64,000 bases of DNA from a virus (IMGVR_UViG_2718218304_000001:32001-96000); one strand, 5' to 3'. Positions 520-61,449 are shown, numbered from the stretch's first letter. Translations and numbers: made by a program. Notes: generated by a model from the letters alone, not told the origin.

Positions 520-580
520 TTCACTCTCCGTAGTGTTTTGGTTATTTTTATATTCTATGATAGTAAGTATGTACTTACAA

Positions 581-611
581 TACAAAAAAGCCCCGTAAGG
601 ATGGCGGGGCT
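581..611 (-). terminator. rho-independent terminator (hairpin GCCCCGTAAGGATGGCGGGGC + U-run on minus strand)
   Basis: GC-rich inverted repeat followed by T-run on the minus strand, just downstream of the 646..957 gene. Confidence 0.5.
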
Positions 612-645
612 GTCGTACTGTCGACTAATTACCACTTGCACATTA

Positions 646-957
646 TCAGGCTATTGCCATCACTGATGCTCTCTGAATTTCTTGCTGGGCCACGCGGTTA
701 ACTTCCATCAAAGCCAGTTCGAGCTGATGTTCCGGCCACATTCTTTGAAACGCCATCCAGCCTTTTCCACGCTGGCGACGAACATTCATTACATAACGAG
801 TAAAGGTGTTTTTATCGAAAGACACCGCTGTTTCACGGAACAGACGAATAGAAGTTCCATTGGCAACGATGTCTAGCAAAGTTAATTGAGCAACCAGTGC
901 AGGCTTCTCTTTTCTCTTCTGGTCTTTGTCCAGACCAAGAACCAATGATTTTTTCAT
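646..957 (-). CDS. hypothetical protein
   Basis: ORF track 646..987; start refined to the ATG at 957, which is preceded by GGAG. Motif-1 palindrome lies directly upstream. Confidence 0.35.
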   Translation of the reverse strand: MKKSLVLGLDKDQKRKEKPALVAQLTLLDIVANGTSIRLFRETAVSFDKNTFTRYVMNVRRQRGKGWMAFQRMWPEHQLELALMEVNRVAQQEIQRASVMAIA

Positions 958-1110
958 CACAACTCCGTAAACAACTTGTTTTCTCAATGGCGTAAATAAT
1001 ACCAGTAAGAAAACGGCTACAAAGCATAATGATCAGGTGCATGATCGATATGCAGGTTCCTCCCTGCGGCTATAGAGAAATTAAGCCAGCAATGCTGGCT
1101 TTGGTTGGGA

Positions 1111-1440
1111 TTACGCGAATACTTCAAGAAACTCCTGAACGTCCCAATGCTGGACAAGGTGAAGATAGACCTTAGAAATAACATCATTCTCGCTATCGCA
1201 TGTGAAGTAGTACTTCTGGCTGCGGTTGTATGTGTCCACACAAAATTCGCTCATATCCATAAAGTCAGCATCTTCACCCATGTCGCAAATCATCAAAGCA
1301 GGTGCATCATCACGAGTCATCAGCTCCAGCACCCATCTTGAATTAATCAGAGTGGAAGACCAACCTTCCAGCTCATAGAACTGGTCAAACTCTTTTTGAG
1401 TTAATTTCTTGATTTGGTTGATGTCGATATGTGCAAACAT
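1111..1440 (-). CDS. hypothetical acidic protein
   Basis: ORF track 1111..1461; start refined to the ATG at 1440 with AAGGAT upstream; motif-1 at 1451..1470. Acidic composition, no recognised domain. Confidence 0.35.
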   Translation of the reverse strand: MFAHIDINQIKKLTQKEFDQFYELEGWSSTLINSRWVLELMTRDDAPALMICDMGEDADFMDMSEFCVDTYNRSQKYYFTCDSENDVISKVYLHLVQHWDVQEFLEVFA

Positions 1441-1799
1441 AAAGCAATCCTTAAACAACATGTTTTCTTGATGGTGTTATTATCGCAATAACGCACAGGT
1501 GAAAAAGGATTTTATTCCGGTGAATGTGGTTTTGGCAGTGAGTTTTCAGGTTCAGTACCGAGTACACTTTTTACATTATTCTGATTTAGTGGCCGAAGGT
1601 GGCTGGTGGGCAGAATAATCCTCTCCCCGAAAACCTACTGAAATCGATTGTGACCCGTTGGCTGTCTGGCACAATTACGCTGTAACTGGGCATTCAGAGG
1701 GAATCCAGCGGTAAGTAAGTTCGCCTGCACGTGAGCGCCTCTCTTCTTCCCGCACATTACAGGTGGATAGCCGCAACTCTCCCTCTCGCTATACCGGTA

Positions 1800-1940
1800 C
1801 TCCACCGTTCCTGAACCGGCATCGAGCCTTCTCCCGAAATCCACACAGGCAACTCGACCGTTTCCCTGAAAACCTCCAGCCGTTCCCCGAAGGCAACCCA
1901 GCCGTTTCTGTAGCGGGATGCAACTTTTCCCTGTATGGAC
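1800..1940. repeat. array of ~6 imperfect direct repeats at ~22-bp spacing (core CCGTT(T)CCC(Y)GAAA)
   Basis: Read directly: ccgttcctgaacc, ccttctcccgaaatcc, ccgtttccctgaaaacc, ccgttccccgaaggcaacc, ccgtttctgtagcggg at ~22-bp intervals; a related unit near 1626. Confidence 0.45.
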
Positions 1941-1989
1941 CGAAGGCTGACCGTAGGGGTGTTACGGGGGATAAAATCAGGAGTTGAAT

Positions 1990-2020
1990 AAATACGAAAA
2001 AGGAGGCGACACCCCTCCTT
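1990..2020 (-). terminator. rho-independent terminator on minus strand (AGGAGG-loop-CCTCCT + U-run)
   Basis: Inverted repeat aggaggcgacacccctcct; on the minus strand it is followed by TTTTTCGTATTT. Confidence 0.5.
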
Positions 2021-2039
2021 CCCTCCCCACTTATACATA

Positions 2040-7438: not shown

Positions 7439-7828
7439 CTACATCACGGGACAATCATCAAACTCGCCACTTCTTGCGTCGTTGATAATGTGAGTGATCA
7501 CACCAAACACGGCATTGCTGCCCGTGCATCCATCGTCATCCTTTGGCAATGCTTCCTTCTTACCGGTTCTTAAATCCTCCAGATGCTGACGTGGGTACTT
7601 CCGGTATCTTTTTACGCGATATTCCCCATCCAGAGCGCATACAAGCAGAGAACCATCAACCGGGGTAAGTGAGGAATCGACCACCAGCAATGCACCCTGT
7701 AATATTCCCTCACGATGATGACTATCAGCTGCCCTCATGAAGTAGGTCGCTGAAGGATGTCTAATTATCTGCTGATCAAGAGAAATACGGCTCTCAGCAT
7801 AATCCGCCGCAGGAGAAGGGAAGCCCAT
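7439..7828 (-). CDS. UmuD'-like S24 peptidase domain protein (lacks UmuD N-terminal arm; no umuC partner)
   Basis: MGFPSPAADYAE...HPSATYF...LLVVDS...DGEYRVKR aligns with UmuD from its Cys24-Gly25 cleavage site onward; Ser (ADSH) and Lys (RVKR) of the catalytic dyad are retained. Confidence 0.6.
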   Translation of the reverse strand: MGFPSPAADYAESRISLDQQIIRHPSATYFMRAADSHHREGILQGALLVVDSSLTPVDGSLLVCALDGEYRVKRYRKYPRQHLEDLRTGKKEALPKDDDGCTGSNAVFGVITHIINDARSGEFDDCPVM

Positions 7829-7926
7829 AGCGTTTTCACCTCAGAGTACTGTTTATCCATACAGTATACATTAAAGATGCTTGAAGTGTGCAATAGCGCG
7901 ATGCTTTGCGCTCGTCTGGTGGCGCG

Positions 7927-17552: not shown

Positions 17553-17741
17553 TCAGAAATAACCAAGTACCGAACCGACTGGAAAAATAAAAATCCCAAC
17601 TACACGAGCCAAGGTCATGCCAGCCTGAAACTGGAGATCACCTGAGCAAACGAGTTTTATAATGTTGGATACCCAACCGGCGGCCATGAGAGCCAGAATT
17701 GCCAGCCAAATTTTCCCAAAGTGATTTGAAAGCCAGTTCAT
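17553..17741 (-). CDS. small membrane protein (2 predicted TM helices)
   Basis: 62-aa hydrophobic ORF with stop/start overlap to the upstream gene. Confidence 0.3.
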   Translation of the reverse strand: MNWLSNHFGKIWLAILALMAAGWVSNIIKLVCSGDLQFQAGMTLARVVGIFIFPVGSVLGYF

Positions 17742-17750
17742 ACAACCACC

Positions 17751-18245
17751 TTAGTCACAACATGATCCTGAGTAACTGGATGAACTTGAGGTATCGCATC
17801 CACCGTCATCCCATCCAGAGTGACAGGACGCTCTACTGGAGTGGTGGTAATTGTCGTCGACGGAGGTGTGGTGATGGATGAACCCGGCATCAAAAGGCTC
17901 TGGCCGGCTGGAACGGCTACCGTCGCCAGTGAAACTATAATGAGAACGTAGGCCATTGGTTTCAGCCTCTTTCTTTGAAAATTTTCCATTCGAACTGTCC
18001 TTGTTGTTTTTCTCCTTCACTAAAGGCCGTGTACTTTTCGCTTCGCGTGAAGAACCAGAGGCAACAATCGCCCCCACGTTCGCAACAACTGACGCTTGAT
18101 TATCTAAACGTTCATTCAGCAACCGAACGGTAGTCTCTAGTTCATCAAGACGTGACATAACACGACCGCTAAACAATTCGGCCAAAATTTGACGTAAAGA
18201 ACGAGGACGTTTAGTTGCAGAAGTGAAATAGGTTTGACGTGCCAT
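17751..18245 (-). CDS. hypothetical protein (C-terminal half low-complexity; overlapping alternative ORF 17738..17989 encodes a signal-peptide protein)
   Basis: Two overlapping frames; the N-terminal ~85 aa look protein-like; cannot be resolved by eye. Confidence 0.25.
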   Translation of the reverse strand: MARQTYFTSATKRPRSLRQILAELFSGRVMSRLDELETTVRLLNERLDNQASVVANVGAIVASGSSREAKSTRPLVKEKNNKDSSNGKFSKKEAETNGLRSHYSFTGDGSRSSRPEPFDAGFIHHHTSVDDNYHHSSRASCHSGWDDGGCDTSSSSSYSGSCCD

Positions 18246-18393
18246 GTGGACTCCATCCAGTGTCAGAAAGAGTTGCGGCTGGCGATCGCCAGCCGCCTTT
18301 CTCGTTCCATCCTGGAACTGTGTCTTACCGACACATTGTCATCCTGACGCTGATAAGATACATGATTTAAAATGATAGGTAAACACTTACTTA

Positions 18394-18984
18394 CTACTTG
18401 TTATAAACAAAACCAATATCTTTCTTGTGAGGCATATCTGCTGCTGAAAAAGCTGCGATCTTCGCGAGTCGATCACATATTTCATTTTCACGATGCCCGG
18501 CGTGACCTTTAACCCACTTCCAGCGAACATTATGTCGACTTGCGGCCTCATCCAGACGCTTCCACAGATCAACATTCTTTACCGGTTTTTTGTCAGAAGT
18601 CATCCATCCATTGCGTTTCCACCATTTCATCCACTGTGTCATGCCGTTTTTCAGATACTGGCTATCAGAGTACAAAATAACGTTGCATGGATATTTCAAA
18701 CGCTCCAGCCCGATAAGTGCCCCCATCATCTCCATGCGGTTATTGGTGGTGCTATGAAAACCATCTGAGAACTCGCGTTCCTCACCACCATACTGGAGAA
18801 CTATACCGTAACCGCCCGGGCCACCCGGATTTTTAAGGCAAGAGCCATCACTGAAGATTTTCACGGTTTTAAGCTGGGGATTGAACTCTACGACAGGCGT
18901 TGTGGAATTGGTGCGGGGAGAATTTTTGTTTTTGTCATTTTTGCGAGTTTTTGCTTGCGATCGGGCTGGTGTCTTCGTCGTCAT
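18394..18984 (-). CDS. ribonuclease HI
   Basis: VKIFSDGSC...NNRMEMMGA...DSQYL...[15 protein letters not shown] closely parallels E. coli RnhA; start refined to the ATG at 18984 with GGAG upstream. Confidence 0.85.
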
Positions 18985-19570
18985 ATAAACTCCTGAATCA
19001 AGCGCCGCGCCGATTTTTTTTTCCTCGCGCGTGCGCACACGCGTGCGTGTTAATAATTATTAAAATAAACAAATTACTTCCCAGAACAGGTTTTTATAAA
19101 CCTGAACTGAACGAACGAAGTGAGTGAAGTTCACCTCGAACGAAGTGAGAGGTTGTCTTTTCAGGTAATACTCTCCCAGGGAGGTGAGTACAAAATTTCC
19201 TCACCAACCTGGTCGTTTCATAACCTGAAAAGTTATGACCTAAGTCTACTGCCAGCTTAGGCTTGGGAAGTTATGGATGACAGCACCCCAGAACCGAGAT
19301 CTTCCCACACTTTATGAAGGGGAGTACTGGATTCAACCTCTCGAAACACCCCAGACTCGACAATCATAAAGTGACCCTTGTCTCTGCTCACTTTGGTTCC
19401 CCCTTCCCCAACCCCTAAACGGTGCCGGTTCTACGCTGGTAGTGAGCTTTTTTAAACCTGACGCCAGTGACGCTTACCCCCACCCATCAGGTCGAGCCTC
19501 CAGTCTACGACTGGAAACTATCAGATCTTAGCACTTACAATTCACTTTATGAATAGTTTGTACTTATCTA

Positions 19571-19825
19571 TCATTTCGATTGATTATTTTTTCGACCATG
19601 TAGTTGAACATTCAAGGCAAACACCTCGTTGATCAACTCACCTAAAAGCTGTTCAACAAGTTCGCGATGCTCCCCAAGATGCAAGCACTTAATTGCCCAT
19701 TCGTACAAGTTGAAAGCCTGCTCACGATCTTTCATCATTTCACGAGCCTGGGCCAGAAAATCGCTCTCTACGAGCGCAACGACATTAGTCGGGTATGACA
19801 TGTTGGTTTCCTTAAAGTGGTTCAT
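19571..19825 (-). CDS. hypothetical small protein
   Basis: ORF track only. Confidence 0.3.
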   Translation of the reverse strand: MNHFKETNMSYPTNVVALVESDFLAQAREMMKDREQAFNLYEWAIKCLHLGEHRELVEQLLGELINEVFALNVQLHGRKNNQSK

Positions 19826-19987
19826 AAAATCGATTTTAAAGCGTCTGGGAAGGGGTTCTAGTGGATTCTGTAGTGGTGTTCAGGTCTGGGAGTCTCTGAT
19901 ATAAAACAGCCTGCTTCCGTATATTAATAATTAATATGTAGTTATTTATATATACAGAAGCAGGCTAATTACAGACGCCAGAACAAA

Positions 19988-20581: not shown

Positions 20582-20640
20582 CTTCTTTCTCGATAGGTAA
20601 GTAAATACCTATTTTTGCATTTGATTTTATGTCTGGCAAT

Positions 20641-24312: not shown

Positions 24313-25443
24313 TCACACCGCCACTGGAACCTTGATCCACGGTAGAGGGTCATAGCCAAGAATTAAAACCTCGTCCCATTTGAAATCATCCAACTCTGAC
24401 CATTCATGAGGGAAAATAACGACCGGATCTGAATGCTCTGGAGCCTGTCGCTTCATTAGCTCACACACACCTTCCATGTGGTTGTTGTACAAATGCACGT
24501 CAAAGCCAAAATGCACAAATGCACCGGCCATGTGACCCGTAATCTTCGCGAGAAAATGAGTGAGAATGCCATAGCCAGCAATATTGAATGGCATACCAAC
24601 AAAAGTGTCTACGCTACGCTGTACGAGGCAGGAGTTGAGGATGCGTTTGGGGATTCCAAGTTCATCCAGTTCAGCTTCAGTAACACTGCCGTCCATCTCC
24701 AGATCGTATAGCATCTTGGTGTAGATAGACTCGTAACCGAGGCGACTGTGTTGAAGACCAATGTCAGTTGCCATCGTTAAACGGGTTTCAAAATCCAGCT
24801 CACGACTCCACAAAGAGAAGACAAAGTGGCAAGGTGGCAGTTTCATATCCTCAAGCTCGCCTACGTTCCATGCGTTAAGCATGATGCGACGATCGGTAGG
24901 GTTCGTGCGCAGTGTATCGACAATACGCTGTAGCTGATCGATTTCACGGGACAGCACTACGCGATCTTCACTGATACCCAGGTATCCCTCGACTTTGTAC
25001 CCGCGTTCACGGAAAGTATCGATCTTGCTCAGATATTCACTATGGCTCACGATGCGGGTATCTTCCCATCGACGCCACTGCTTACCGTAAACCGGCCCCA
25101 AATCGCCATTCTCATCGGCCCATGCATCCCAAATCTTAACGCCGTTATCCTTGAGAAATTGGATGTTGCCCGTGCCTTTCAGATACCACTCAAGTTCGAC
25201 AAGTAGTGGCTTAAGATTTACCGCCTTTCCAGAAATAAGCGGCACAGTCCCACCAGTAAGCATGTAGTAAGAGGGAACGTAGCAGGTGCTTAAAGTACCA
25301 GTGCCTGTGCGATCATCAGCCTGCACGCCGCTTTTAAGCACCGTCTCAATAACTTTTGCATACGATGCGTTTGTTACCTGACCGTTCGTATGCTCACGAT
25401 TCAAAAGGAGTGACACAAAAACCTCACAAAGATAAGTAACCAC
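24313..25443 (-). CDS. thyA: thymidylate synthase (long form with two internal insertions)
   Basis: DRTGTGT, WADENGDLGPVYGKQWR, NAWNVGEL..PPCH, SVDTFVGMPFNIA, DVHLYNNH, GYDP match ThyA; 376 aa against ~264 in E. coli. Confidence 0.85.
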   Translation of the reverse strand: MVTYLCEVFVSLLLNREHTNGQVTNASYAKVIETVLKSGVQADDRTGTGTLSTCYVPSYYMLTGGTVPLISGKAVNLKPLLVELEWYLKGTGNIQFLKDNGVKIWDAWADENGDLGPVYGKQWRRWEDTRIVSHSEYLSKIDTFRERGYKVEGYLGISEDRVVLSREIDQLQRIVDTLRTNPTDRRIMLNAWNVGELEDMKLPPCHFVFSLWSRELDFETRLTMATDIGLQHSRLGYESIYTKMLYDLEMDGSVTEAELDELGIPKRILNSCLVQRSVDTFVGMPFNIAGYGILTHFLAKITGHMAGAFVHFGFDVHLYNNHMEGVCELMKRQAPEHSDPVVIFPHEWSELDDFKWDEVLILGYDPLPWIKVPVAV

Positions 25444-25493
25444 TTATTCATTGCGTGAGTTTACATTTATTGAGAGAACAAGACCAGACAGAT

Positions 25494-25520
25494 AAAAAAA
25501 TGGTGGCCATAGGCCACCAA
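25494..25520 (-). terminator. rho-independent terminator (TGGTGGCCATAGGCCACCA + U-run)
   Basis: Perfect hairpin flanked by A7 on the plus strand (U7 on the minus strand). Confidence 0.55.
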
Positions 25521-30099: not shown

Positions 30100-30140
30100 G
30101 TATCACCAAATAAAGAGGGCCACTAAATATAGTGGCCCAT

Positions 30141-30170
30141 GTTAATAGATAAGTACTTACCTATCAATGA
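30141..30170 (-). promoter_or_regulatory. sigma70-like promoter overlapping a palindrome (TTGATA-17 bp-TAACAT) upstream of nrdA
   Basis: Minus strand reads TTGATAGGTAAGTACTTATCTATTAACAT; member of the motif-2 family. Confidence 0.4.
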
Positions 30171-30172
30171 AA

Positions 30173-30742
30173 TCAAATGAGAGACTTAAGAACATCGCGC
30201 ACCTGGCGGAACTGATCTGTTTGCATACCGGTATGGATGGCAGCCACCGCATCAGCCAAATGTTCGTTTTTGTTCACGAGAACATCCTGTCCAGATTGCT
30301 TACGACGCAGCCACGGTGCTTTAGGGTGTTTTTTCGTAGCCCACTGGATAATCTCTTCTTTCGATGTAGTAAGTTTATTGCCGACAAAATGCTTGATTTC
30401 GTTTGGAGTAACCTGGATCAATGGCTTATCCACACACGCAAGTACACCGATACAAATACCGTAAGACGTCTGCGAACGAGAGTTTTGGCTCCCAACCGGT
30501 AGCTCACAAAAAACCATATTTGCCTTATCAATGATTGGCTTCGCAACACGCCATATTTCACTGGCGCGGCGCAGATCGTCACTGTTCACACGAACGGTCT
30601 TTTTGTTACTCCCCGCTTTAGTCTCAACAAGAGTAAGGCCGTGAATCTCAAGTTCGTCCGTTTCAAGGTCTAAAGTGCCCACAGCAAGCCCAAAGTTGCT
30701 CATAGAGGGATCAACACCAACTACGCTGATTTTTTTACTCAT
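30173..30742 (-). CDS. RuvC-like Holliday junction resolvase
   Basis: N-terminal VVGVDPS acidic motif and RNase-H-like pattern. Confidence 0.5.
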   Translation of the reverse strand: MSKKISVVGVDPSMSNFGLAVGTLDLETDELEIHGLTLVETKAGSNKKTVRVNSDDLRRASEIWRVAKPIIDKANMVFCELPVGSQNSRSQTSYGICIGVLACVDKPLIQVTPNEIKHFVGNKLTTSKEEIIQWATKKHPKAPWLRRKQSGQDVLVNKNEHLADAVAAIHTGMQTDQFRQVRDVLKSLI

Positions 30743-30751
30743 ATAGTCTCC

Positions 30752-33401: not shown

Positions 33402-33630
33402 ATAACACCTCTGATACCGTGTGTTAGCTTTTGGCCTTCTTTCAATCTGAACTCCGTATGCGCCGGGAAGGATCTGCGCCTCAATACGCCTTTTCTTGTT
33501 AACCTTCCAAGATAAAACGCTACGGGATTTCCTTGTGGCGGGTAGGGCTTGTGAAACATCACCGTCTGGCCTCGTTCAAGTCTTTTCATCGTGATGGCAA
33601 AGTCTCGAAAGCTCCCATAACGACTTTGCT

Positions 33631-34716
33631 TCACACAGCCTCCGAACTCTCCGCTTCGGTGAGGATTTCCTGACACAAAATATCCAATTTGCTCAGATCA
33701 AATCCGCCGTCAGTATCGTGGACAATCTTGCAATAAGCAGATACCGACTCTCCCAGGCTATCGATTTTGCTGGTTTCAGTTGTGCTGGCTGTCCCTTCCA
33801 TCATTGATGACTTACGGATGAAGTTGCACACGACACCTTTTGCACCCATTGTTTTGAGGATGTTCTGGTACTTAATGCCTTCTTCATCGTTCTCAATTAC
33901 GGCGCGGAAACGCACGTAGTTGCCGCGAATTTGGTCATCAGCAACATCATCTTCCAGGTTAATGAATTTAGGCGCACTGGTTTCGTAGTGACTGAAACTG
34001 CCGTCCGGGTTTACGATCATGTAGCCAGCCAGAGATCCAACATCTCCCCAATTTTGATGAGTCAGTGCACCGACACTGATAACTCCAGGAATGACCTCTT
34101 TGTGGTTGTGGTAATGCCCACTAAGCACGAGACGAAAGCCGATATCCTTTAACTCCTGCGCATCGATACCGACGTCAGGCATTGTTGGAATGGCTTTGTT
34201 AATGGATGTATGGATAACAACGTCATGATTATCACCTTCTACGCTCTTACGTAATGCTTTCAGATCGCTGATAAGCTCCGCATGATTGTTACGCCAGCTA
34301 ATCAGGTGGACAGTCACATCACCAATTTTTATTGAGTGTGGGCGCTTGCCACATACGATTACCACGCCGATAGAACTCAGCGATGCTGCTGCGTTGGCGC
34401 TATATACTGAATCGTTGGTTTCAAGATCGTGATTACCGGCCAGCATTACTACTGTCAGATCAAGCTCGTTGATAATCCACTTGTACGTTTCAGTTACGTA
34501 ATGCAAAACAGAAGGGGACACAGTTCCTCGGACGTGAAATGTATCACCGGCAACCAACATGTACTTACAACCGGCCTTCTTCATGGCGATGGCTGCTTCT
34601 TTCGTTGCTTCCAACTGTATTTCAAGTCTGGAGTTAAGCCCCTCAGCGTTCGTCGTGGAGAACGCATCCCATTTGTGGTAGTGGCAGTCAGAAATGACGC
34701 CGTATGGCAAAGTCAT
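33631..34716 (-). CDS. SbcD/Mre11-like nuclease (calcineurin-like phosphoesterase)
   Basis: Metallophosphatase motifs (GDTFH, GNHD) at the N-terminus; upstream of the SbcC-like gene. Confidence 0.75.
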   Translation of the reverse strand: MTLPYGVISDCHYHKWDAFSTTNAEGLNSRLEIQLEATKEAAIAMKKAGCKYMLVAGDTFHVRGTVSPSVLHYVTETYKWIINELDLTVVMLAGNHDLETNDSVYSANAAASLSSIGVVIVCGKRPHSIKIGDVTVHLISWRNNHAELISDLKALRKSVEGDNHDVVIHTSINKAIPTMPDVGIDAQELKDIGFRLVLSGHYHNHKEVIPGVISVGALTHQNWGDVGSLAGYMIVNPDGSFSHYETSAPKFINLEDDVADDQIRGNYVRFRAVIENDEEGIKYQNILKTMGAKGVVCNFIRKSSMMEGTASTTETSKIDSLGESVSAYCKIVHDTDGGFDLSKLDILCQEILTEAESSEAV

Positions 34717-34970
34717 GTGTTTTTCCTTTGTGGTTATTTTGATACAAATTCTAAGAGCAATGAGGAGGTAAACAACTATGCATAACGGTATGTTAGGAAT
34801 GAAACGAGCGCCTTAATATACAAAATTTATAAGTAAGTATATACCTATTTATCGTGGCGCAACTTTGCTTGTCTGTATGACTAAAAATAAGACAGGATCA
34901 CTGTAGAACGCTATGAGAGCTATTTTGAGGGGGCGTAGATTCTATCTACGCCAATATACGATCTGGAGGG

Positions 34971-35615
34971 TTACAGCGCGTCAGTGGGCTTTTTACGCGC
35001 TGCGTTTATGCTTATGACGCCAGCTTTTGGACGTGGGTCAACAAGGTTAAGCTCTTCTTCACTGTGGTATTCGAGGTCGAACTCACGTTTTACATGTCTG
35101 ATGTAGATTGCGGTGAGCAGGCTATCTTTGGTCAGAAAGTGTCCGTAGGATTTGCGGATCACTTCTTCTACCTTCTCGATTTTCTCACCACCCATACAGA
35201 GATGATTAAACCGGCTGTGTTTCCGCAACATTTCGTCTACTGGGCCTGAGTAAACCTTGTCTACTTTCCCAAAACGGATGATTTTCCCTGTGTCTGCGGA
35301 TACGAGGCAAATCAGCTTGTCTGGTGATAAACGATCTCGCCACGTCACACCTGAACGGAGTGTGTTGAAGTAGGGAGCATCCAATCCGATGATCGGTTTA
35401 CGAAATGCGAGTAATGGAACGTACCTGATGCAACTGTTTAAATGAAAATTCACACCAGCCTTATCAAGTTTAATTCTGGTTTCGTAGATCGGGCACTTTG
35501 CCGCTATACCGCAGATGTCACAAAGCAACTTCTGCTTATTCAGGTTGGAATTTGATTCGATAGTGTAGGAGCCGTCTTCAAGACGACGAACCCAGCGCGT
35601 GCGTTTTAGATCCAT
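34971..35615 (-). CDS. hypothetical protein
   Basis: ORF track only. Confidence 0.3.
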   Translation of the reverse strand: MDLKRTRWVRRLEDGSYTIESNSNLNKQKLLCDICGIAAKCPIYETRIKLDKAGVNFHLNSCIRYVPLLAFRKPIIGLDAPYFNTLRSGVTWRDRLSPDKLICLVSADTGKIIRFGKVDKVYSGPVDEMLRKHSRFNHLCMGGEKIEKVEEVIRKSYGHFLTKDSLLTAIYIRHVKREFDLEYHSEEELNLVDPRPKAGVISINAARKKPTDAL

Positions 35616-35814
35616 ATGTCATTTTTCTGTGATTGTTAGCCGAGGCAACGATAACCCACCAGGTGCGCCGAAGGTAGTAAATGCCTGTTTTAATTATTCA
35701 CATATCCACAGGATAGATCCTAATAAAGAGATCCATAGATAGATCCTTGTATAGATCAAATAAGATCCCCGATCGCTGTAAGCCGCGCCACGACTGGTCT
35801 GAAGCCATGTTCAT

Positions 35815-35925
35815 GTATGCTGTCAGCGGTAATTGATAGTCTGTCAGCGGTTCACCGTATGCTGCCAACTGTTTTTGGTATTCTGTCAGCGGCAAATCAA
35901 GTATGCTGTCAGCGGTTGAATGACA
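35815..35925 (+). repeat. upstream iteron cluster (~5 copies, consensus TATGCTGTCAGCGGT)
   Basis: Direct repeats read in sequence immediately 5' of the rep start. Confidence 0.7.
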
Positions 35926-35936
35926 AAGGTGTCCAC

Positions 35937-37031
35937 ATGTCCACAAAAAATAAAAAAGGTAAAAATAACAAAGAAGTAGAAGATAATCTCGACAACTTTG
36001 AAGAAGGTTCCCTTGAATTGTACACAGGGGAACTTGTCCCTAATAGCAACAATACAGTCCAACCAATTGCGTTGATGCGGCTGGGATTGTTCGTGCCCAC
36101 GCTCAAGGGGACAAAATACAGCAAGCGTAACAAGCCAAATGAGATCGATGCTTCAAAGGAGCTTGTCCAGCTCGAAGTAGCCCGTTCTGAAGGCTATTCC
36201 GATATCAAGATAACCGGTCCTCGTCTCGACATGGATCATGATTTCAAAACGTGGGTGGGCGTTGTGCGTTCGCTGGCAGAATACGGCGAACCTAATGGTC
36301 GTGTCGAGTTAAGCATCACGAAATTTGCGAAGTTTTGTGGCTATCCATCGTCACAGATCCGCAAAACACTCCGCGACCGGCTTACAAACAGTCTTTTGAA
36401 GATCATGCGTACAACTCTGTCTTTCCAGAGAACGTATGAAGAAAAGAACGTCGACGGCTCTAACAAGATCTCGCTTCTGATGGTGCACCTCATCAATAGC
36501 GTGGACTACAACGAGCAGAAAGATACGGTGGTGTTCTATGCAGAACCGAAGCTGGCCGAACTATATCGCTTTGACCATAAGGTTCTTTTGCAGTTAAAGG
36601 TTATCAATAAGCTACCACGCAAAGAAACAGCACAGGCTCTGTACACCTTCATCGAAAGTCTTCCAACCAAGCCTGCGCCGGTATCGCTTGCTCGATTGCG
36701 TGCGCGACTCAATTTGAGTAGCAGGAATGTCAGCTCGCAGAATCAGACTATACGTAACGGCTTAAAAGCTCTCCAAGATTTGGGCTATCTCGAATACAGC
36801 GAGATTAAGCGTGGGCGGTCGATCTATATCCAGATTCACAGCCGCAATCCAAAACTTAAAGTCGCACCGCCAAAACCTGAAGACATCGAACCCAAAAAAC
36901 CAGATGAGAAAGCCGGGGAAATTGATGCTAAACAGAACATTATCAACAAGATAACTGAACTTTCGCAGAATTTGACGCCTGAAAATATCAAGATGATTGA
37001 GATCCTTTCCAATAGTCTCAAACTGCTTTGA
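35937..37031 (+). CDS. plasmid-type replication initiator (Rep), iteron-binding
   Basis: Basic N-terminus; flanked on both sides by iteron arrays (P1 RepA-like organisation); start refined to the ATG at 35937 after AAAGGTG. Confidence 0.6.
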   Translation: MSTKNKKGKNNKEVEDNLDNFEEGSLELYTGELVPNSNNTVQPIALMRLGLFVPTLKGTKYSKRNKPNEIDASKELVQLEVARSEGYSDIKITGPRLDMDHDFKTWVGVVRSLAEYGEPNGRVELSITKFAKFCGYPSSQIRKTLRDRLTNSLLKIMRTTLSFQRTYEEKNVDGSNKISLLMVHLINSVDYNEQKDTVVFYAEPKLAELYRFDHKVLLQLKVINKLPRKETAQALYTFIESLPTKPAPVSLARLRARLNLSSRNVSSQNQTIRNGLKALQDLGYLEYSEIKRGRSIYIQIHSRNPKLKVAPPKPEDIEPKKPDEKAGEIDAKQNIINKITELSQNLTPENIKMIEILSNSLKLL

Positions 37032-37032: not shown

Positions 37033-37560
37033 ATGCTGTCAGCGGTGAAATGTATGCTATCAGCGGCTATTTTTCTGAAAAGTATGCTGTGAACGGTTAA
37101 AGATATGCTACCAGCGGTATAGTGAGATGAACGTATGCTGTGGGCGGTAAATCATCTATCACCACTCAATGCTCTTTTATACCTCCCCAGTGGTTACTAA
37201 CCTCGAAGAGTGCATTCCATATAGGTTTGCGCTCACTAACATTCTATTCCCATTGCGCTGATTGCTTGTAGTGAAAGGCATTTATTGCCTGCTGCTCCCT
37301 GATAGAACGTATGCTGTCAGCGGTGTTTTATTGAGGAATTTTTGTTTGGATATGCTATCAGCGGTAATTAATGGTATATGTCAGACCTTCGTATGCTGCC
37401 AGCGGTAATTTTGTTCTGGTTATACCCATACCGGTACACATTATTCATGCAATGTCTTAAGTATGCTGTCAGCGGTAAAAAATCGAGTAAAGTATGCTGT
37501 GAGCGGTGAGATAGACTCTCGATATGCTATCAGCGGTAGTTGATTGTGTATGCTGTTAGC
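37033..37560 (+). repeat. downstream iteron array (~12 copies of (G/A)TATGCTGTCAGCGGT with variants)
   Basis: Copies near 37033, 37053, 37085, 37105, 37133, 37310, 37352, 37393, 37462, 37491, 37521, 37546. Confidence 0.75.
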
Positions 37561-38334: not shown

Positions 38335-38373
38335 GATAGGTAGATACTAACTTATATAAATTTTACTATAAAC

Positions 38374-43851: not shown

Positions 43852-43968
43852 GTGTTTCTCCTTGTTGTGATTTGGCCGATGGCGCTATGCGCGTTGGGCT
43901 TTCGTTCATTCGTGGCTCTTTCGAGCTGTTAAATGATAGATCAGCACTTACTTATTATCTATCAAAAA

Positions 43969-51274: not shown

Positions 51275-51369
51275 GCGTTTTTCCTTTGTTCTCTAATGAG
51301 CGTTCAACTTCTTATATAAATATACCATTAACTATCGTAAGTAGTTACTTATCATCAAGGCTGTTTTAT

Positions 51370-53576: not shown

Positions 53577-53789
53577 TTAACAGATTCTGACGGCTAAAGA
53601 CCAGGAGCCGGTATTGAGAAGCGTGAAGCGTTTGTTGTTAAGTTCGAATATAAAGCCAGTTGTGTCATTCACACCAACCTGAATCTGCTCATTCGGTAGA
53701 TCGGTGAGGATGTCAGCTACACACTCATCAGCTAATTTCTGTACGTGTCCGATCTCAAGAGCGATTAGGCTGGAAATAGTGGTGTTCAT
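53577..53789 (-). CDS. hypothetical small protein
   Basis: ORF track only. Confidence 0.3.
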   Translation of the reverse strand: MNTTISSLIALEIGHVQKLADECVADILTDLPNEQIQVGVNDTTGFIFELNNKRFTLLNTGSWSLAVRIC

Positions 53790-54040
53790 TCAATCAATCC
53801 ATTCTAACTTATACTATGGTAAGGAATACTACTAAAATTTGTATCAATACTGAATACATTCATATCATATGCAAGTTGATTTTCTTACCTGTTTTGGGCT
53901 AATTTTTCTCCGTGCAATGGCCTTTAACCGGTCTTTTAAGTGCCTATCGAAAAAAATGATAATAGCTTTACAACCCTAACCTTTGATGTAATATCGGTAA
54001 GCACTTACCAGAGAGAATTGAACGCGCAAAGGTTGTAACC

Positions 54041-54427
54041 ATGTCTGATAACAAGATTGAATTTATAGAAAGTCGCTACGCTGCTTTTATCGCAGGGTTG
54101 ATTGAATCCTCACCTATGAGTCAGGCCCAAATAGCCAGACTTATTGGTTATAAAAATGCCAACAACCTTTCTTTAATTAAAAGTGGCAAAATTCCTTTGC
54201 CTATCGATAAGGTTCGTCCGTTGGCGCTGGCGCTGGGTATTGAGCCAAGTCGTCTTATGATGATGGTGCTGGAAGAACGCCAACCTGAACTCGCAGCATT
54301 TTTATACAAAGAAGGCACCGCTCCTCTTAACGAGGACGAAAAACAGGTTCTTGCTGCATATAACGAGCGATTCGGTAAAGAGAAAGGCGCATCACAAAAG
54401 GTTGTTGAGGCCATAAAGTCTCTATGA
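54041..54427 (+). CDS. helix-turn-helix (XRE-like) DNA-binding regulator
   Basis: MSQAQIARLIGYKNANNLSLIKSGK is HTH-like; convergent with the recombinase gene. Confidence 0.5.
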   Translation: MSDNKIEFIESRYAAFIAGLIESSPMSQAQIARLIGYKNANNLSLIKSGKIPLPIDKVRPLALALGIEPSRLMMMVLEERQPELAAFLYKEGTAPLNEDEKQVLAAYNERFGKEKGASQKVVEAIKSL

Positions 54428-55525
54428 AAAATTTACACGAATAAGCTCTGTTGATAGACGATCTCCCTTGAATTTGTGGTCAATTTCGTCTAAATCCGGT
54501 TGCTCTACGATTGATGCGATGTACGTCGAGAAACTTTCTAAGGCGTCTCGCATCTCGTCCATATAATCGTGCCGGTCGTAGACTCGATCTATCCCCTCAA
54601 GACTGTGGTTCATGATTTTGCGTGATACCTCCTGGCTTATGCCTAATGCTGGGAAGTAACTACGCGCAGTACGGCGCAAGTCTCGGGGTGTAAATGGCTC
54701 AAGCTCCATCAGTTCTGGTCGTTCCAGAATACGACGTAATGCCTGGGCTATTGCCACTTTAGACATAGGAAGGTCTTTCCCGATTTTTTTATTCGAAGGC
54801 ACGAGCCACTGGCTGTCTTTACCATATTCGAACAACTCTTCAATACAAGTGCGCATTAATGAGCTTAAAGGCAGAGAATGCTCACGGGCAGATTTGTTCC
54901 TCTTGCCTTGATTCCAAACCCCACGCTTAAGATTGAACTCACTTTTTTTAGCCCGCAGTACTTCGTCAGGTCGTCTTGCGGATACAAGACATAGCCTGGC
55001 AGCCCATTTTGTACCAGCACACACATTGAAGTAGTCCCATATATTCCAGAACACCCATACCTCTGCGTCGGTCAGCTTCCGCTCGCGAGGTGTGGGCTTT
55101 GCGCCACCGGCAACTTTGTTAAGTGACATATCGTTTAACGGTGACACGTCTATCATCCCCTGGAAGGCGCACCAGCTAAGGAACTGCTTCATCAGAGAGA
55201 AAACGCGGCGGCCCATAACAATTTTGCCATCCAGTATTAGTGGGTTGACCAGTTGGTTCACCATGAACCTATTAATGTCACTTACTTTTACATCGGCAAT
55301 GTGCGGCAAAACATGTATCAAAATACAATGAACAGCGATCTCTGGCCGACGTCTGGTTATCAGCAGAGATAAGCGAGTGAATAACATGAATGCGTCCGAG
55401 AATCTCATGTCATTGCTAACCTGCGAGATCATAACGGCCTGCATTTGAGATGCTCTTTCGAGATACTCTATCGCCTCTTTTGAGGTGTTCTCCGCAGCGC
55501 GTGCTCTGTCAAAGCTATTTTTCAT
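54422..55525 (-). CDS. tyrosine site-specific recombinase (integrase or resolvase)
   Basis: C-terminal catalytic region with RDLRRTA...MNHS...RVYDRHDY (R..H..R..Y). Confidence 0.8.
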   Translation of the reverse strand: MKNSFDRARAAENTSKEAIEYLERASQMQAVMISQVSNDMRFSDAFMLFTRLSLLITRRRPEIAVHCILIHVLPHIADVKVSDINRFMVNQLVNPLILDGKIVMGRRVFSLMKQFLSWCAFQGMIDVSPLNDMSLNKVAGGAKPTPRERKLTDAEVWVFWNIWDYFNVCAGTKWAARLCLVSARRPDEVLRAKKSEFNLKRGVWNQGKRNKSAREHSLPLSSLMRTCIEELFEYGKDSQWLVPSNKKIGKDLPMSKVAIAQALRRILERPELMELEPFTPRDLRRTARSYFPALGISQEVSRKIMNHSLEGIDRVYDRHDYMDEMRDALESFSTYIASIVEQPDLDEIDHKFKGDRLSTELIRVNFS

Positions 55526-55623
55526 ATGACAATCACCGAGTTACGCCGATGTACTGTATAAGTAAACAGTATATTAGGCATAGATTCTTATAGGATCAAG
55601 AGTAAAAGTAACTCATTTTTACT

Positions 55624-57123: not shown

Positions 57124-57128
57124 TAAAT

Positions 57129-57203: not shown

Positions 57204-57981
57204 AATTCAGCACTGCCAGTATTTATTACTCAACAGTGCCAATCGCGACGGTTTAGTTTCTGCCAGGAAACGCACCGCTACTTGCACTTTTCGTTAGTGC
57301 CAGACGCTTTCGACTTCGCTCAATAGTAGAAGGCAAAATCTTTAAGTAGATGATGTTTCTGAGGACAGCACCTACTTTGTAATTTATACAATGTGATGTA
57401 TGGAATCATTTGTTGTGAAAACAGGCACCAATGGCAACAGTGGTTAAACCTACACAACAATCCTGTCTTCACAACGTTGAGGCCACTACTCCGATTGAAT
57501 GTTTGCCCAACATGTTACATATCAACGCTCGCCGGTATCTCTGTGAATAGAACCTTAGAATTGATAAAAATGTAATGGCCTCAACGTTGTGTGCTGGCTA
57601 ACCATACCAGCCGGGCTACGTCGCCGCTTTTTAACCCAGTATAAACGACATAATTGAACAAAATGACGTAACAGGATGGGCGGTCAGTGGCTAAGAATCC
57701 GGGAGTCATATGGAGTTGAAAATATACCAACCGCCCATTCTGTTACTTCATCGGAGGGAACATGAATGTTCCCTCCTGCGTTCTGCAATCACACTCGCTC
57801 AGTGTGTCCCATTTCGGTAACGAGGCTGGAAACTGACCTCGCTGGTGTTTGGCTTATTAGGCTACTGCCAGATAGACTTCTTCGTTTGCACTTGTATTTA
57901 AGTTCAAACAGTCGCGTCTCAACGAAAACAAAGTCATCTTATACATAAAAGATAAGTAAGTAAATACTTATCACCATGTTT

Positions 57982-58417: not shown

Positions 58418-58633
58418 TCATTTTAACGCTCCTGATTCTACTAATTGCTGTAGCAATACTTTCCCTTTATCAGTTAACTGGTAGTTGGCCGAACACCACG
58501 TTTCAGAAACGTTTGCAACCAACCCTAACCGCTCTAACTTAGCTCGCGTTTTAGGCTTCCAGTACTCAGGGAACTCCGGCCACTTACTTATTTCATGAAG
58601 CGTTTCTTTCTCCCGTTTACTTAATACGATCAT
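58418..58633 (-). CDS. hypothetical small protein
   Basis: ORF track; stop/start overlap with the ligase gene. Confidence 0.3.
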   Translation of the reverse strand: MIVLSKREKETLHEISKWPEFPEYWKPKTRAKLERLGLVANVSETWCSANYQLTDKGKVLLQQLVESGALK

Positions 58634-59952
58634 TCTTTATCTCCGATTCGATCTTCGGTATCGCGTAAGCAACGCGGCCATTTCAGTCGTGGGTGGCGTA
58701 AGCTGCCATCCGGCGTTTTCTCGTGACAATGAACCTCGACAATACGACCACGGTACTTCTCTTTGTTGTTCCAGATCTCGTCCAGATATTTATGCTTAAT
58801 GCCGCTCGCACGAACAATCACACCGTTTTCAAGGCGAATAACAATTTTTCCAAGCGTGTTGGCAAAACCAGAGTCCGGGTCGCCAGGCTCAAAGTCGATA
58901 ATTTCACCATCTTCTGAATCTTCGTCTTTTAACTTCCACCAGCTGCGGGTACGTTTAAACTCGTAAACAGAGTTCGGATCTTTGCCCATCTCCCCTTCTT
59001 CGTTATCGTCCAGGCGTTTCATGAAGCGTTCGATGAAGTCTTCGTGGCTATGGATGATGTAGAACGGATGAAGGTGGATATCTTGCGCATAATCTTCCAC
59101 GCAAGTGTTGCGGAACAACGCCACCAGCATAGCCAGGCGCTCTTTCAGCTTCATACCGGTCTTCAGGTACTCTTTGCTTTTTGCTTGAGCACGCCACTCC
59201 GGTAAGAAGAAATCGAAAATGTGGTAAACGGCACCAATGGCTTTCACGTTCTTCTTACGAAGCGCCGACACTGACTGGTTGAATGTACCTGCAGTGCCCT
59301 CTCCATCGAAGAAGATGTGATTGAAGCCGGAGAGTCTGCCCCGCTCCAGCATGGCTGGTTTAAGGTGATCGAGTGACGTAATCGGATTGCCGGTGCGCGT
59401 CAGGAAATTGACCTCACCCTCGTCCACGATGACTTCGCAGATAACCCGGAGACCATCGAGTTTGAGACTGCCGATCATTGGCCACTTGGCCTTTGGATTT
59501 GGTTTAAATGGGTATTTGTCGCCTTTCTCCTTGTACGGAGACGCCAGCTGTACCTCAAACTTCGGAATTGGGTTTTTGAACACCTTGTTGCACAGGCTGA
59601 TGCCGACACCGGCTTTCGGATCTTTCAGCAGGAAGCGACGAAACACGTCCTGCCCGTCAGCGCACATCGAGGCAACGAGTGATTCGACAGCAGCAATAGC
59701 GATGTTCCCGGTCAGTTCGCGCGCTGCCAGCTTCTCCAGCAGATCTACTACCTTCTGGTCGCTGGGTACGGAAGTATCGAGTGGCTCGGCCACTTTGTAC
59801 TTCTTCACACCGAATCGAATGAATGGATTGAGCATTAGCGAGACCATGCTCTGTTCAAATTCATCCAGATTGGCCAGCGCCTCTTTCTTGGCGTTGGTTC
59901 CCATCGTTTTAATAGCATCCAGCTTGTGCTTTAGGGCGATCAGTTTTTCCAT
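58630..59952 (-). CDS. ATP-dependent DNA ligase
   Basis: Adenylation motif I KLDGLR (SLKLDGLRV) in a 440-aa protein. Confidence 0.8.
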   Translation of the reverse strand: MEKLIALKHKLDAIKTMGTNAKKEALANLDEFEQSMVSLMLNPFIRFGVKKYKVAEPLDTSVPSDQKVVDLLEKLAARELTGNIAIAAVESLVASMCADGQDVFRRFLLKDPKAGVGISLCNKVFKNPIPKFEVQLASPYKEKGDKYPFKPNPKAKWPMIGSLKLDGLRVICEVIVDEGEVNFLTRTGNPITSLDHLKPAMLERGRLSGFNHIFFDGEGTAGTFNQSVSALRKKNVKAIGAVYHIFDFFLPEWRAQAKSKEYLKTGMKLKERLAMLVALFRNTCVEDYAQDIHLHPFYIIHSHEDFIERFMKRLDDNEEGEMGKDPNSVYEFKRTRSWWKLKDEDSEDGEIIDFEPGDPDSGFANTLGKIVIRLENGVIVRASGIKHKYLDEIWNNKEKYRGRIVEVHCHEKTPDGSLRHPRLKWPRCLRDTEDRIGDKE

Positions 59953-59958
59953 TAGTGT

Positions 59959-60462
59959 TTAACCTCCATCGGTCGCTCGGGAGTTTTCATGTGTTTTCTT
60001 TGGTTGCTTCTTCAATGAGTGCCGCGTACACGTCAGTGATCGACGCCAGTGAATCGGTGGGCTTGGTTTCGGATTTAGCAGGTTCTGTTTTCTTCGTGCG
60101 ATGAATAAGACTGTCAATTGTCGCGGAGTTTCGCTTCCGGGGGGCGTTCTGGCATGGTCGTTTTGCTCTTCCACTTCTTTGATAAGTGAAGACATATCGA
60201 TGAAGTAGAGCTGTTCGCCTTTGCGGATCTCTTCGACCATCATTTTCAGTGCCTGACATTTACCAGCAGCAATAGCCGCAGCACAGGACTGGAACGATGT
60301 AGCCGGGAGACGTTTTTCTTTATAGGCGAGGATCGTGTGTTGGCAGACTGTATAGCTGCAATGAGCCTCATGGCCGTTGAGCTTCACTTCCGGGCAGCGC
60401 AGCGAATAACCGTTGTTTCCGGAGATAGACGGGATTTTCGACAAATCTGTTCTTGTGGACAT
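59959..60462 (-). pseudogene. Cys/His-rich hypothetical gene with a frame break at a C6 homopolymer
   Basis: The N-terminal ~105 aa look protein-like, then the frame turns into a Pro/Arg-rich tail; a +1 shift at the G6 run 60139..60144 (C6 on the coding strand) joins a well-formed C-terminus ending at 59987. Confidence 0.35.
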
Positions 60463-60542
60463 GCTTCTAACCGTAATCTTGTACTTACTTATTAATCGCA
60501 GTTTAAAGAAGCCCCACGAGGGGCTAAATGTTTTATCGAGGC

Positions 60543-61355
60543 TTACCAGGTCGCCCAGCCAGTCATTTTGTCCTGAGCAGCTTCGAACCGGTATGGGTCC
60601 AGTAAATCGTTGGCATGGTGGACGGCGTAGGATTTGGCTTCTTGTTTAATCATGGGTAATTCGTTGGCCAGACGAGCCACTTGCCCTGCAAAACTGGCGA
60701 GTACTCCGTCACATGCCTGACCCGCGTCGACAATGATGCGCACCAGGTCTAAGTCGCTGCGGCACATATCGCAGATAATGCCGTATTCCACCTCACGAAT
60801 GCGCTCAACGGCTTTTTTGATATCGCCACTGACCACCAATTCCAGCAAACCAGGTGGAGTTGTCAGATCTGTTACGCGCTCGGTAACTTCAGACTGTTCG
60901 ACAATACTCAGGAACGCCGCGATGGACGGGTCATCCGCCACACCAGCTCTGACTTTGAGCGTGCGAAGAGTTGCGTCGACAATATCCTCAAACCGTTCAC
61001 CTTCATCGCACACAGTCTGATTGGTGTAGACAGTCTGATTAGTGTAGACAATGCGACCGTCGTACCATGCACCGGTACTCACTTCGACCGTTGCGTCTTT
61101 CATCTCGCGAGAGAACGCCACAAGTGCCGCGCGTTTCTGCTTAACACCTGGCAACTCCGGGGACTCTCCAAAACGAACCCAGACCTGCATGTATTTCGAG
61201 CCTTCCGAAAGAGGTGCGGCGCTCACGGACGTGGCGATATGCTCCAGCGCAGTTTGGATCGCCTCGTCGATAATCTTCTGGCGCTCTTCTGTATCAATTT
61301 CTACGCCGGATTTGTCGATGATGTCGCAGACTAACTTCTGAAATTCTTCTTTCAT
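60543..61355 (-). CDS. hypothetical protein containing an 18-bp tandem duplication (VYTNQT x2)
   Basis: ORF track; tandem repeat read at 61013..61048. Confidence 0.4.
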   Translation of the reverse strand: MKEEFQKLVCDIIDKSGVEIDTEERQKIIDEAIQTALEHIATSVSAAPLSEGSKYMQVWVRFGESPELPGVKQKRAALVAFSREMKDATVEVSTGAWYDGRIVYTNQTVYTNQTVCDEGERFEDIVDATLRTLKVRAGVADDPSIAAFLSIVEQSEVTERVTDLTTPPGLLELVVSGDIKKAVERIREVEYGIICDMCRSDLDLVRIIVDAGQACDGVLASFAGQVARLANELPMIKQEAKSYAVHHANDLLDPYRFEAAQDKMTGWATW

Positions 61356-61449
61356 AGCAACTCCTGACTAACAGATGAAAGTATTCTTTCAGAAAAATAA
61401 GTAAGTATCTACTTATTATATCGGGCGCAATAGTCTGCTATACGAAGAA

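Follow-up and report, generated by a model that had tools for sequence, protein, structure and literature searches.

The 64,000-nucleotide stretch of viral DNA analyzed here (IMGVR_UViG_2718218304_000001:32001-96000, hereafter the window) carries nearly all genes between about 14.6 and 61.4 kb on the minus strand, and its gene junctions hold copies of one recurrent palindrome, which is the subject of this study. Over an 8 kb segment (28000-36000), identity is 99% to Escherichia phage CMS-2020a, 98% to the phage-plasmid Cyrano (pLF82 of E. coli LF82) and ~77% to Salmonella phage SSU5, while the whole window is Cyrano-like in gene content and gene order; judged by this match the window is therefore an SSU5/pHCM2-type phage-plasmid. 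We scanned the full genomes of three relatives, Cyrano, SSU5 and Klebsiella pJN2-26, for sites, and compared two lineages from Acinetobacter, referred to as Acinetobacter-1 (NZ_CP143349.1) and Acinetobacter-2 (NZ_CP096711.1).

A preliminary description of this DNA had listed 11 near-palindromic positions under the consensus GATAAGTA-N-TACTTATC. All 11 do carry an instance of one recurrent motif, but the consensus with its single N was mistaken, since the literal pattern (GATAAGTANTACTTATC) has 0 matches in the window with up to 3 mismatches allowed. The true site is a 20-bp palindrome, ATARGTAAGT·ACTTACYTAT, equivalent to ATAAGTA-N6-TACTTAT, and the echoes seen at N2 and N10 spacing arise from a 4-bp repeat inside the motif. 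In an unbiased 8-mer analysis, ATAAGTAAGT words are the most over-represented of the whole window; TAAGTA/TACTTA inverted pairs at most 30 bp apart occur 7 times, against 0.03 expected. A weight-matrix scan with background statistics, proposed earlier as a check, places the motif family far above chance: the iterated matrix recovered 13-14 strong sites, and matches at 15 or more of the 20 positions number 17 where 0.65 are expected (16 or more: 9 against 0.05). Three sites are additions to the earlier list, at 25432, at 38336 and, in degenerate form, at 53993, ahead of a gene for a helix-turn-helix (HTH) protein to which we return below.

The archetype is found in pJN2-26, a perfect 20-bp palindrome (ATAGGTAAGT·ACTTACCTAT); several Klebsiella copies are perfect, and one in pJN2-26 extends to a perfect 28-nt palindrome. 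Sites in the window share this register with looser inner positions. The 10+10 geometry with its N6 spacing is invariant across five lineages, and the inner, stem-closing positions are the least conserved of the motif. Upstream of the core, at a distance of 11-16 bp (core positions -16..-11), the sequence is T-rich (77-85% A+T), and a weaker, mirrored A-rich tract follows downstream (+32..+37). These flanks were considered as terminator tails and rejected, a strict terminator lying upstream at only 2 of 63 sites; they may reflect DNA bending or additional protein contacts. The form TAAGTAAGTAA, as at 57952-57971, contains stop codons in all three frames. The site fits none of the E. coli operator consensuses known to us for Fur, LexA, NrdR and TyrR, and searches for the motif strings in the literature available returned no relevant match. 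When 2.9 million viral contigs were scanned, the exact palindrome turned up in 39 retrieved stretches from about two dozen of them, and 38 of the 39 stretches are largely alignable to SSU5-like genomes. The 13 kb contig IMGVR_UViG_3300029219_000223, which has the exact 20-bp palindrome while only 17% of it aligns to such genomes, could be a more remote element that carries the system.

In the complete genomes the scans found 27 sites in Cyrano, 28 in SSU5 and 28 in pJN2-26, against ~1 expected per genome, with 27-33 per genome across the lineages scanned. All but one of the 27 Cyrano sites are intergenic, although coding sequence makes up 87% of the genome (binomial P ~4e-22); 12 lie at most 15 nt from an upstream stop codon, and 9 end 2-22 nt ahead of the next start codon. 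Many sites adjoin the stop codon of the upstream gene or themselves supply it. The preliminary description had confined the sites to a replication/metabolism regulon, a limit that the relatives do not respect: their full genomes have sites in the late structural and lysis operon as well, between TerL and portal, after the major capsid protein (MCP) gene, between tail genes and between tail fibre and holin, at orthologous positions in Cyrano, SSU5 and pJN2-26, so that the regulon is not limited to replication and metabolism. Sites are sparse in the accessory/plasmid-maintenance region (Cyrano 85-105 kb) and around genes that a study of strain LF82 found expressed in the lysogen. Where intergenic regions of the window are aligned with those of SSU5, the core stands out as a conserved island between flanks that have diverged beyond alignment. 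The sites of the window and the two genes most relevant to their interpretation are listed in Table 1.

Table 1. Palindromic sites and associated genes in the window. Scores are matches to the 20-bp palindrome; promoter frames are given as -35, spacer length and -10.
Feature	Coordinates	Strand	Score	Context
Palindrome	559..582	.		Inner GTAAGTA-TG-TACTTAC at 563-578; ~40 nt upstream of minus-strand hypothetical gene (CYRAN_107-like); inside minus-strand TTGTAA-17-TAGAAT, directly after terminator hairpin; orthologous sites at Cyrano 96686 and SSU5 93165
Palindrome	18375..18394	.	17/20	Adjoins RNase H gene stop; next minus-strand gene 129 nt downstream; kept at SSU5 79904 (19/20) and pJN2-26 16842
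Palindrome	19552..19571	.	15/20	Adjoins stop of CYRAN_80-like gene
Weak AT-rich site	19930..19949	.	15/20	Membership in family uncertain; same position in Cyrano 78099, SSU5 78319 and pJN2-26 15285
Palindrome	20593..20612	.	18/20	11 nt ahead of Dam-like methyltransferase start; immediately downstream of -10 in TTGCCA-17-AAAAAT
Palindrome	25432..25451	.	16/20	Covers start of longest ThyX open reading frame (GTG at 25443); Cyrano annotation puts ThyX start 16 nt downstream of core; downstream of MazG-like gene and its terminator (25501-25519)
Palindrome	30145..30164	.	19/20	45 nt upstream of nrdA; occupies spacer of minus-strand TTGATA-17-TAACAT
Palindrome	34829..34848	.	18/20	112 nt upstream of SbcD-like gene; covers -10/transcription start of TTGCGC-16-TATACT (frame read by eye, Cyrano copy)
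Palindrome	38336..38355	.	17/20	Ends 1-2 nt ahead of ATG of small membrane-protein gene (CYRAN_60-like); overlaps TTTACA-17-TAGTAT, which implies a near-leaderless transcript; expression step +3.65 log2 on partial induction
Palindrome	43936..43955	.	17/20	84 nt upstream of gp32-like SSB gene; 13 nt past UvsY-like stop
Palindrome	51333..51352	.	15/20	Between CobT-like and CobS-like genes; 58 nt ahead of CobS-like start
Degenerate site	53993..54012	.		Inner palindrome TCGGTAAGCACTTACCAGA; ~+1..+17 of HTH gene promoter TTTACA-16-TAATAT
XRE-type HTH protein	54041..54427	+		128 aa; CYRAN_45; candidate dimeric repressor
Small gene divergent from HTH gene	53577..53789	-		CYRAN_46-like; Cro-like position
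Palindrome	57952..57971	.	18/20	GATAAGTAAGTAAATACTTATC; 10 nt past CYRAN_39-like stop; upstream of tRNA region
Palindrome	60473..60492	.	15/20	10 nt ahead of CYRAN_35-like start; directly after terminator hairpin
Palindrome	61397..61416	.	18/20	41 nt upstream of CYRAN_34-like gene; conserved island, then conserved CTGnAAGAAT (extended -10-like) element; expression step +1.9 to +3.4 log2 in every condition

A palindrome may be read either in DNA or, once transcribed, as a hairpin. Covariation between the arms was assessed for 74 distinct sites with shuffled arms as the control, and there was none: 504 Watson-Crick pairs were counted against 505±7 in the shuffled arms. Polymorphic arm positions comprise 16 G·C, 22 A·T, 14 G·T and 13 A·C combinations, and G·U on the sense strand is not favored over A·C (14 vs 13; 11 vs 11). 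Since the arms neither covary nor show a G·U bias, the half-sites appear to be constrained independently, which points to a symmetric dimeric DNA-binding protein and away from an RNA structure or cruciform; we regard it as very probable that the palindrome is the site of such a protein. The competing proposal, that AU-rich transcript hairpins act in processing, stability, attenuation or translational control, possibly bound by an FljA/Hfq-like protein, draws on the sites being palindromic, transcribed, intergenic and often placed directly past stop codons, on a fall in expression past the MCP gene at a site, and on an FljA-family RNA-binding protein encoded by the enteric elements. It is very unlikely, as it fits neither the missing compensatory changes nor the weak conservation of exactly those positions that would close the stem. 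A GC-rich stem with a U-tract, which together with compensatory changes would mark an intrinsic terminator or structured RNA, was not found at the sites, terminator-like hairpins stand beside only 2 of 63, and in the Acinetobacter element, where the system is present, no FljA homolog was detected. Chance can practically be dismissed: intergenic DNA is AT-rich and some low scorers (e.g., 19930) are simple AT-rich sequence, but AT-rich composition alone, raised in the preliminary description as the explanation that would undo its proposal, is excluded by the shuffle controls for both the window and the complete genomes, and functionless matches would not keep their positions over 77% genome identity or recur as the highly enriched variants found in Acinetobacter.

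The frames of the type TTGNNN-17-TANNNT reported earlier at 563 and 30145 are present, on the minus strand, at both sites. Their placement over the -35 and spacer is not the rule, as the core lies at +3/+6, +13/+17 or +27 from the start of the -35, and no fixed TTG offset relative to the core was found. In the +3/+6 register the core covers the -35/spacer (e.g., TTGATA-17-TAACAT, TTGAAA-17-TATCAT), at +13/+17 it covers the -10 and transcription start site (TSS; e.g., TTGAAT-18-TATACT, TTTACA-17-TAGTAT) and at +27 it lies just downstream of the -10 (e.g., TTGCCA-17-AAAAAT). The sole -10-like element tied to the core is TAnnnT at core position 18, which is mirrored on both strands and is therefore part of an extended palindrome of ~26 bp. 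As the site is palindromic, the antisense strand serves as a control for content intrinsic to the motif: sigma70-like frames overlap the core on the gene strand at 16 of 40 sites and on the antisense strand at 7 of 40 (14 sense-only vs 5 antisense-only, p=0.03), amounting to ~40% of sites with an overlapping gene-strand promoter in at least four registers. With independent arms and an excess of gene-strand promoters, the earlier picture of a palindromic operator for one dimeric regulator embedded in many promoters is supported. That picture had left the choice between repressor and activator undecided; coverage of the -10/TSS favors the former and speaks against the latter, variable placement that includes occlusion of the -10/TSS being what would be expected of a repressor operator and not of an activator site. 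The effect of the sites is thus probably repression, as far as their arrangement in the DNA indicates.

Gene-level expression of Cyrano is available from published RNA sequencing of LF82 (PMC9928086, supplementary file 2). During partial induction in macrophages, expression rises by +2.4 to +3.7 log2 at the Cyrano sites 9018, 57446 and 59399, whose cores overlap predicted promoters, and at 34730, where the overlap was read by eye. Across the gap that contains sites 31175 and 31296 there is a drop from the lysogenically expressed parA operon, by 6-7.7 log2 in conditions other than lysogeny broth (LB) and by 3.2 log2 in overnight LB. Site-containing gaps show larger expression steps than all site-free gaps taken together, but not than site-free gaps of matched size.

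The HTH protein encoded at 54041..54427, which the preliminary description had put forward for binding assays, is the best candidate binder, on the grounds that its recognition helix co-varies with the half-site and that sites lie at its own promoter; we put the chances that it is the protein that reads the palindromes at about even. It matches PHROG phrog_8, "transcriptional regulator" (E=1.3e-11), and in a single-sequence AlphaFold2 model (predicted local distance difference test score 73) the C-terminal part is helical. Foldseek matched the model to C.AhdI, lambda cI, Stl and the Salmonella phage repressor 5D4Z with probabilities of 0.96-0.99 but weak E-values; these matches are dimeric XRE repressors, and the predicted fold resembles phage/XRE repressors. 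A PDB sequence search with the protein returned no homolog, and no S24 autocleavage domain was found in it. The gene is present in 959 plasmids, including pHCM2 and pMT1 and others from Klebsiella, Enterobacter, Cronobacter and Acinetobacter, and among the records listed an integrase gene adjoins it. Its expression in the lysogen is ~10x over background, and the authors of the LF82 study regarded the protein as the master repressor.

When E. coli and Klebsiella elements are compared over the divergent region, good conservation is confined to one block, the promoter of the HTH gene, and from the position of the degenerate site at about +1 of this promoter we infer an autoregulatory operator. 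The arrangement recurs with variations: E. coli and Klebsiella elements have one site each at this promoter and Acinetobacter-1 has three, in Acinetobacter-2 one site lies exactly in the spacer of TTGGGT-17-TATAAT, and K. pneumoniae CP055187 has two half-site repeats.

Comparison between lineages provides what we consider the strongest indirect evidence for the HTH protein as binder, a co-variation of recognition helix and half-site over three lineages. In the enteric elements the half-site is ATARGTAAGT (27-28 sites at 15/20 or better) and the helix reads NANN(L/I)SLIKSG; in Acinetobacter-1 the half-site is ATCAGTCAGT (33 sites at 14/20 or better) with RPNVLSMIKSG, and in Acinetobacter-2 it is ATTAGTAAGC (32 sites at 15/20 or better) with NQNMVSFIVRG. 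The variant half-sites are 65-190x enriched in the Acinetobacter lineages, both of which have retained the 10+10 geometry along with the places of the sites, those between TerL and portal and after MCP among them. A Klebsiella plasmid whose HTH protein is 47% identical has kept both the recognition helix and TAAGTA half-sites, which is consistent with the pairing and does not discriminate.

Among other candidates, a second small conserved protein (CYRAN_123 type, encoded upstream of terS) and the product of the gene at 53577..53789 in the position of Cro remain the main alternative binders. The former is weakly disfavored because its putative helix is almost identical in enteric elements and Acinetobacter-1, while the half-site differs at 2-3 positions. 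The latter, whose expression climbs from log2 4.3 to 10.8 when the element is partially induced, is a candidate alternative or second binder of the palindromes. CYRAN_114, an FljA-family RNA-binding protein, was set aside together with CYRAN_37 and Cra, none of the three being detectable in the Acinetobacter element, and the S24 protein CYRAN_98 was rejected as it has no homolog in SSU5, pJN2-26 or the Acinetobacter element. At 100780-101301, outside the window, Cyrano has a gene for an FljA-family protein (PF03614, "repressor of phase-1 flagellin", E=1e-80), which is conserved in enteric SSU5-like elements.

Taken together, we lean slightly toward reading the palindromes as the operator network of a lysogeny repressor, formed by one dimeric protein encoded by the phage-plasmid itself, most probably the HTH protein. 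The repressor would silence lytic genes (replication, nucleotide metabolism, recombination, structural and lysis genes) while the prophage is maintained as a plasmid, each monomer reading one 10-bp half-site ATARGTAAGT at ~28 sites dispersed over the lytic part of the genome. Two modes of action could be envisaged: (i) at sites on sigma70 promoters, whether over the -35/spacer, over the -10/TSS or just past the -10, bound protein would block initiation, and (ii) at sites in short operon gaps that have no promoter, it could act as a stoperator-like roadblock to read-through or raise the local concentration of repressor. The roadblock is a possible function. The weaker site at +1 of the repressor promoter would provide negative autoregulation.

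Several observations weigh against this reading or soften it. The HTH_19 match of the candidate in Pfam (E=7.8e-4, 19.7 bits) is below the curated cut-off of 30.2 bits, and the Foldseek E-values are weak (0.16-1). SSU5 carries all 28 sites yet does not have the HTH gene; here we assume, by analogy with the phages D29 and L5, a lytic derivative that has lost the integrase-repressor module. Co-variation between lineages would fit any protein encoded by the element, and the CYRAN_123-type protein is present in all lineages. About 60% of the sites have no recognizable sigma70 frame, and the expression steps at site-containing gaps in the LF82 data are not above those of size-matched site-free gaps (p=0.17-0.75), so that the gene-level data prove neither promoter nor roadblock function.

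The same sites could instead serve a lytic-phase activator or form part of a phage-specific promoter, comparable to the Lpa late promoters of P1 or the MotA boxes of T4, with a CYRAN_123-type winged-helix-like protein or the Cro-position protein turning on all lytic units. We consider this unlikely, even though it would account for sites ahead of lytic genes of every class and their rarity near lysogen-expressed genes, for the up-steps at several sites on partial induction, for the retention of the CYRAN_123-type protein down to the lytic SSU5 and for the absence of a good -35 at many sites. Relative to the -10 the register shifts by over 20 bp, and the several cores on or past the -10/TSS are incompatible with class I/II activation; a palindrome provides no directionality, the third of Cyrano sites that end so close to the next start codon also argue against an activator, and the almost invariant CYRAN_123 helix is at odds with the changed half-sites. 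Improbable, too, is a role outside transcription, be it ParB-like loading or anchoring, genome organization, packaging or the marking of boundaries for module exchange. Two ParB-family genes are kept in every lineage, sites lie at gene and module junctions whose positions are stable across lineages, and a stop-bearing 20-bp palindrome would be kept out of coding sequence irrespective of its function. Against such a role stand the gene-strand excess of overlapping promoters, the clustering of sites at the HTH promoter in every lineage and their depletion in the plasmid-maintenance region, the place to expect partition sites; the turnover of site sequence between lineages likewise speaks against shared recombination substrates.

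Many dispersed sites for one repressor have been described in mycobacteriophages. In the accounts drawn on here, the repressor gp71 of L5/Bxb1 (Cluster A) has more than 20 operator or stoperator sites, at promoters as well as in the narrow spaces between genes, early and late alike, for which global silencing of the prophage has been proposed; the site sequence evolves together with the repressor and sets the immunity groups apart, and D29, a lytic relative of L5, is described as keeping the sites while the repressor is absent (PMC9283540; PMC5712189, PMC6550527). Each L5 site is an asymmetric 13-mer, functional in only one orientation with respect to transcription; the repressor binds it as a monomer that has two DNA-binding domains (PMC9283540). 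The phage-plasmids resemble L5 in having more than 20 sites per genome (27-33) at promoters and in short gaps of early and late operons, and SSU5, like D29, keeps the sites without the candidate repressor. They differ in that the sites are palindromic (20-26 bp) and orientation-free, with flank features mirrored on both strands, and in that the independence of the half-sites implies a dimer, the candidate being a 128-aa XRE-type HTH protein; the host is Gram-negative, the prophage is a plasmid, and a block to elongation is here a proposal. Coliphage T1 and Citrobacter phage Stevie, both strictly lytic, have 16-20 copies of a mostly intergenic 22-bp repeat that has been likened to stoperators and is asymmetric and co-oriented with transcription (PMC4319613). 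These repeats share with the palindromes their conserved intergenic location in enterobacterial siphoviruses, but are unrelated in sequence.

Among plasmid prophages, P1 uses a single master repressor, C1, with many dispersed operators that each serve a separate lytic operon. The P1 operators are asymmetric and 17 bp long, its late genes depend on a separate activator, Lpa, and we know of no P1 operators in small gaps within structural operons. One proposed repressor with many scattered operators in a plasmid prophage makes the present system similar to the C1 network, while the palindromic sites are unrelated in sequence to the P1 operator consensus as we know it; the only Pfam match of the candidate is HTH_19, though no search was aimed at C1 homology. 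With lambda CI/Cro the system shares a predicted HTH fold, a palindromic dimer-type operator whose 10-bp half-sites are spaced by about one helical turn, a small gene divergent from the repressor gene and placed like cro and, on sequence evidence, an operator at the repressor's own promoter. The operators of lambdoid repressors form only two or three clusters, in contrast to the ~28 genome-wide sites seen here, and the candidate has no S24 autocleavage domain. The IncP proteins KorA and KorB repress many plasmid promoters co-ordinately through palindromic operators; KorB is a ParB-family protein with 12 sites, some far from promoters, and no phage lysogeny switch is involved. The likeness lies in the arrangement, with palindromic operators of one protein over many promoters.

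Other features were noted in the vicinity of the sites and in related elements. The integrase gene (54422..55525, minus strand) and the HTH gene are convergent, with an overlap at the 3' end of the latter. At 55551-55570, 29 nt ahead of int, stands a near-consensus LexA box, TACTGTATAAGTAAACAGTA, and int expression in LF82 rises from log2 5.6 to 10.3 in macrophages. SOS-driven int transcription running antisense into the repressor gene could, from this arrangement, be a route of induction. A LexA-type box, CTGTTTATCCATACAG, is found at 7849-7864, just upstream of a UmuD-like S24 peptidase gene (7439..7828, minus strand) that is strongly expressed in the lysogen. Between the operator/promoter at 30145 and the nrdA start, a hairpin with a 9-bp stem (GGGCCACTATATTTAGTGGCCC; 30117-30138, minus strand), conserved in SSU5 and pJN2-26, could serve as a stabilizer in the 5' untranslated region or as an attenuator. 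Clusters of CTGTCAGCGGTA repeats at 35820-35906 and 37036-37531 flank repA (35817..37031, plus strand) and look like plasmid replication iterons; they are probably the other repeat family implied by the preliminary description. The A. baumannii element p5759_1 has a gene annotated as a sigma-70-family sigma factor among its replication genes (17690-18355) and a second enriched palindrome, TCTATATAGA, and the SSU5-like plasmid NZ_CP055187.1 of K. pneumoniae has the strongly enriched repeats AAACAAGTTGTT (12 copies) and AAAACACATG (10 copies).

SSU5-like phage-plasmids occur widely among clinical Enterobacterales, with pHCM2 in S. Typhi, pMT1 in Y. pestis and many plasmids of Klebsiella and E. 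coli, some of which carry resistance genes, while their lysis-lysogeny control has been essentially uncharacterized so far. The control network outlined here is apparently previously undescribed for the SSU5/pHCM2-type family, and a defined operator set with a named candidate repressor opens the control of these elements to direct experiment. More tentatively, and with considerable doubt, we suggest that SSU5/pHCM2/pMT1-type phage-plasmids of Enterobacterales and Acinetobacter may have arrived independently at a stoperator-like strategy, in which a dimeric XRE repressor acts through ~30 palindromes at promoters and as roadblocks in the structural operon, and in which the half-site variants (ATAGGTAAGT, ATCAGTCAGT and ATTAGTAAGC) correspond to heteroimmunity groups. 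If true, immunity groups would be predictable from the half-site variants, the stoperator concept could be tested on a second case, this one outside the actinobacteriophages, palindromic and of the dimer type, and it would be explained why lytic isolates such as SSU5 occur without the integrase-repressor module.

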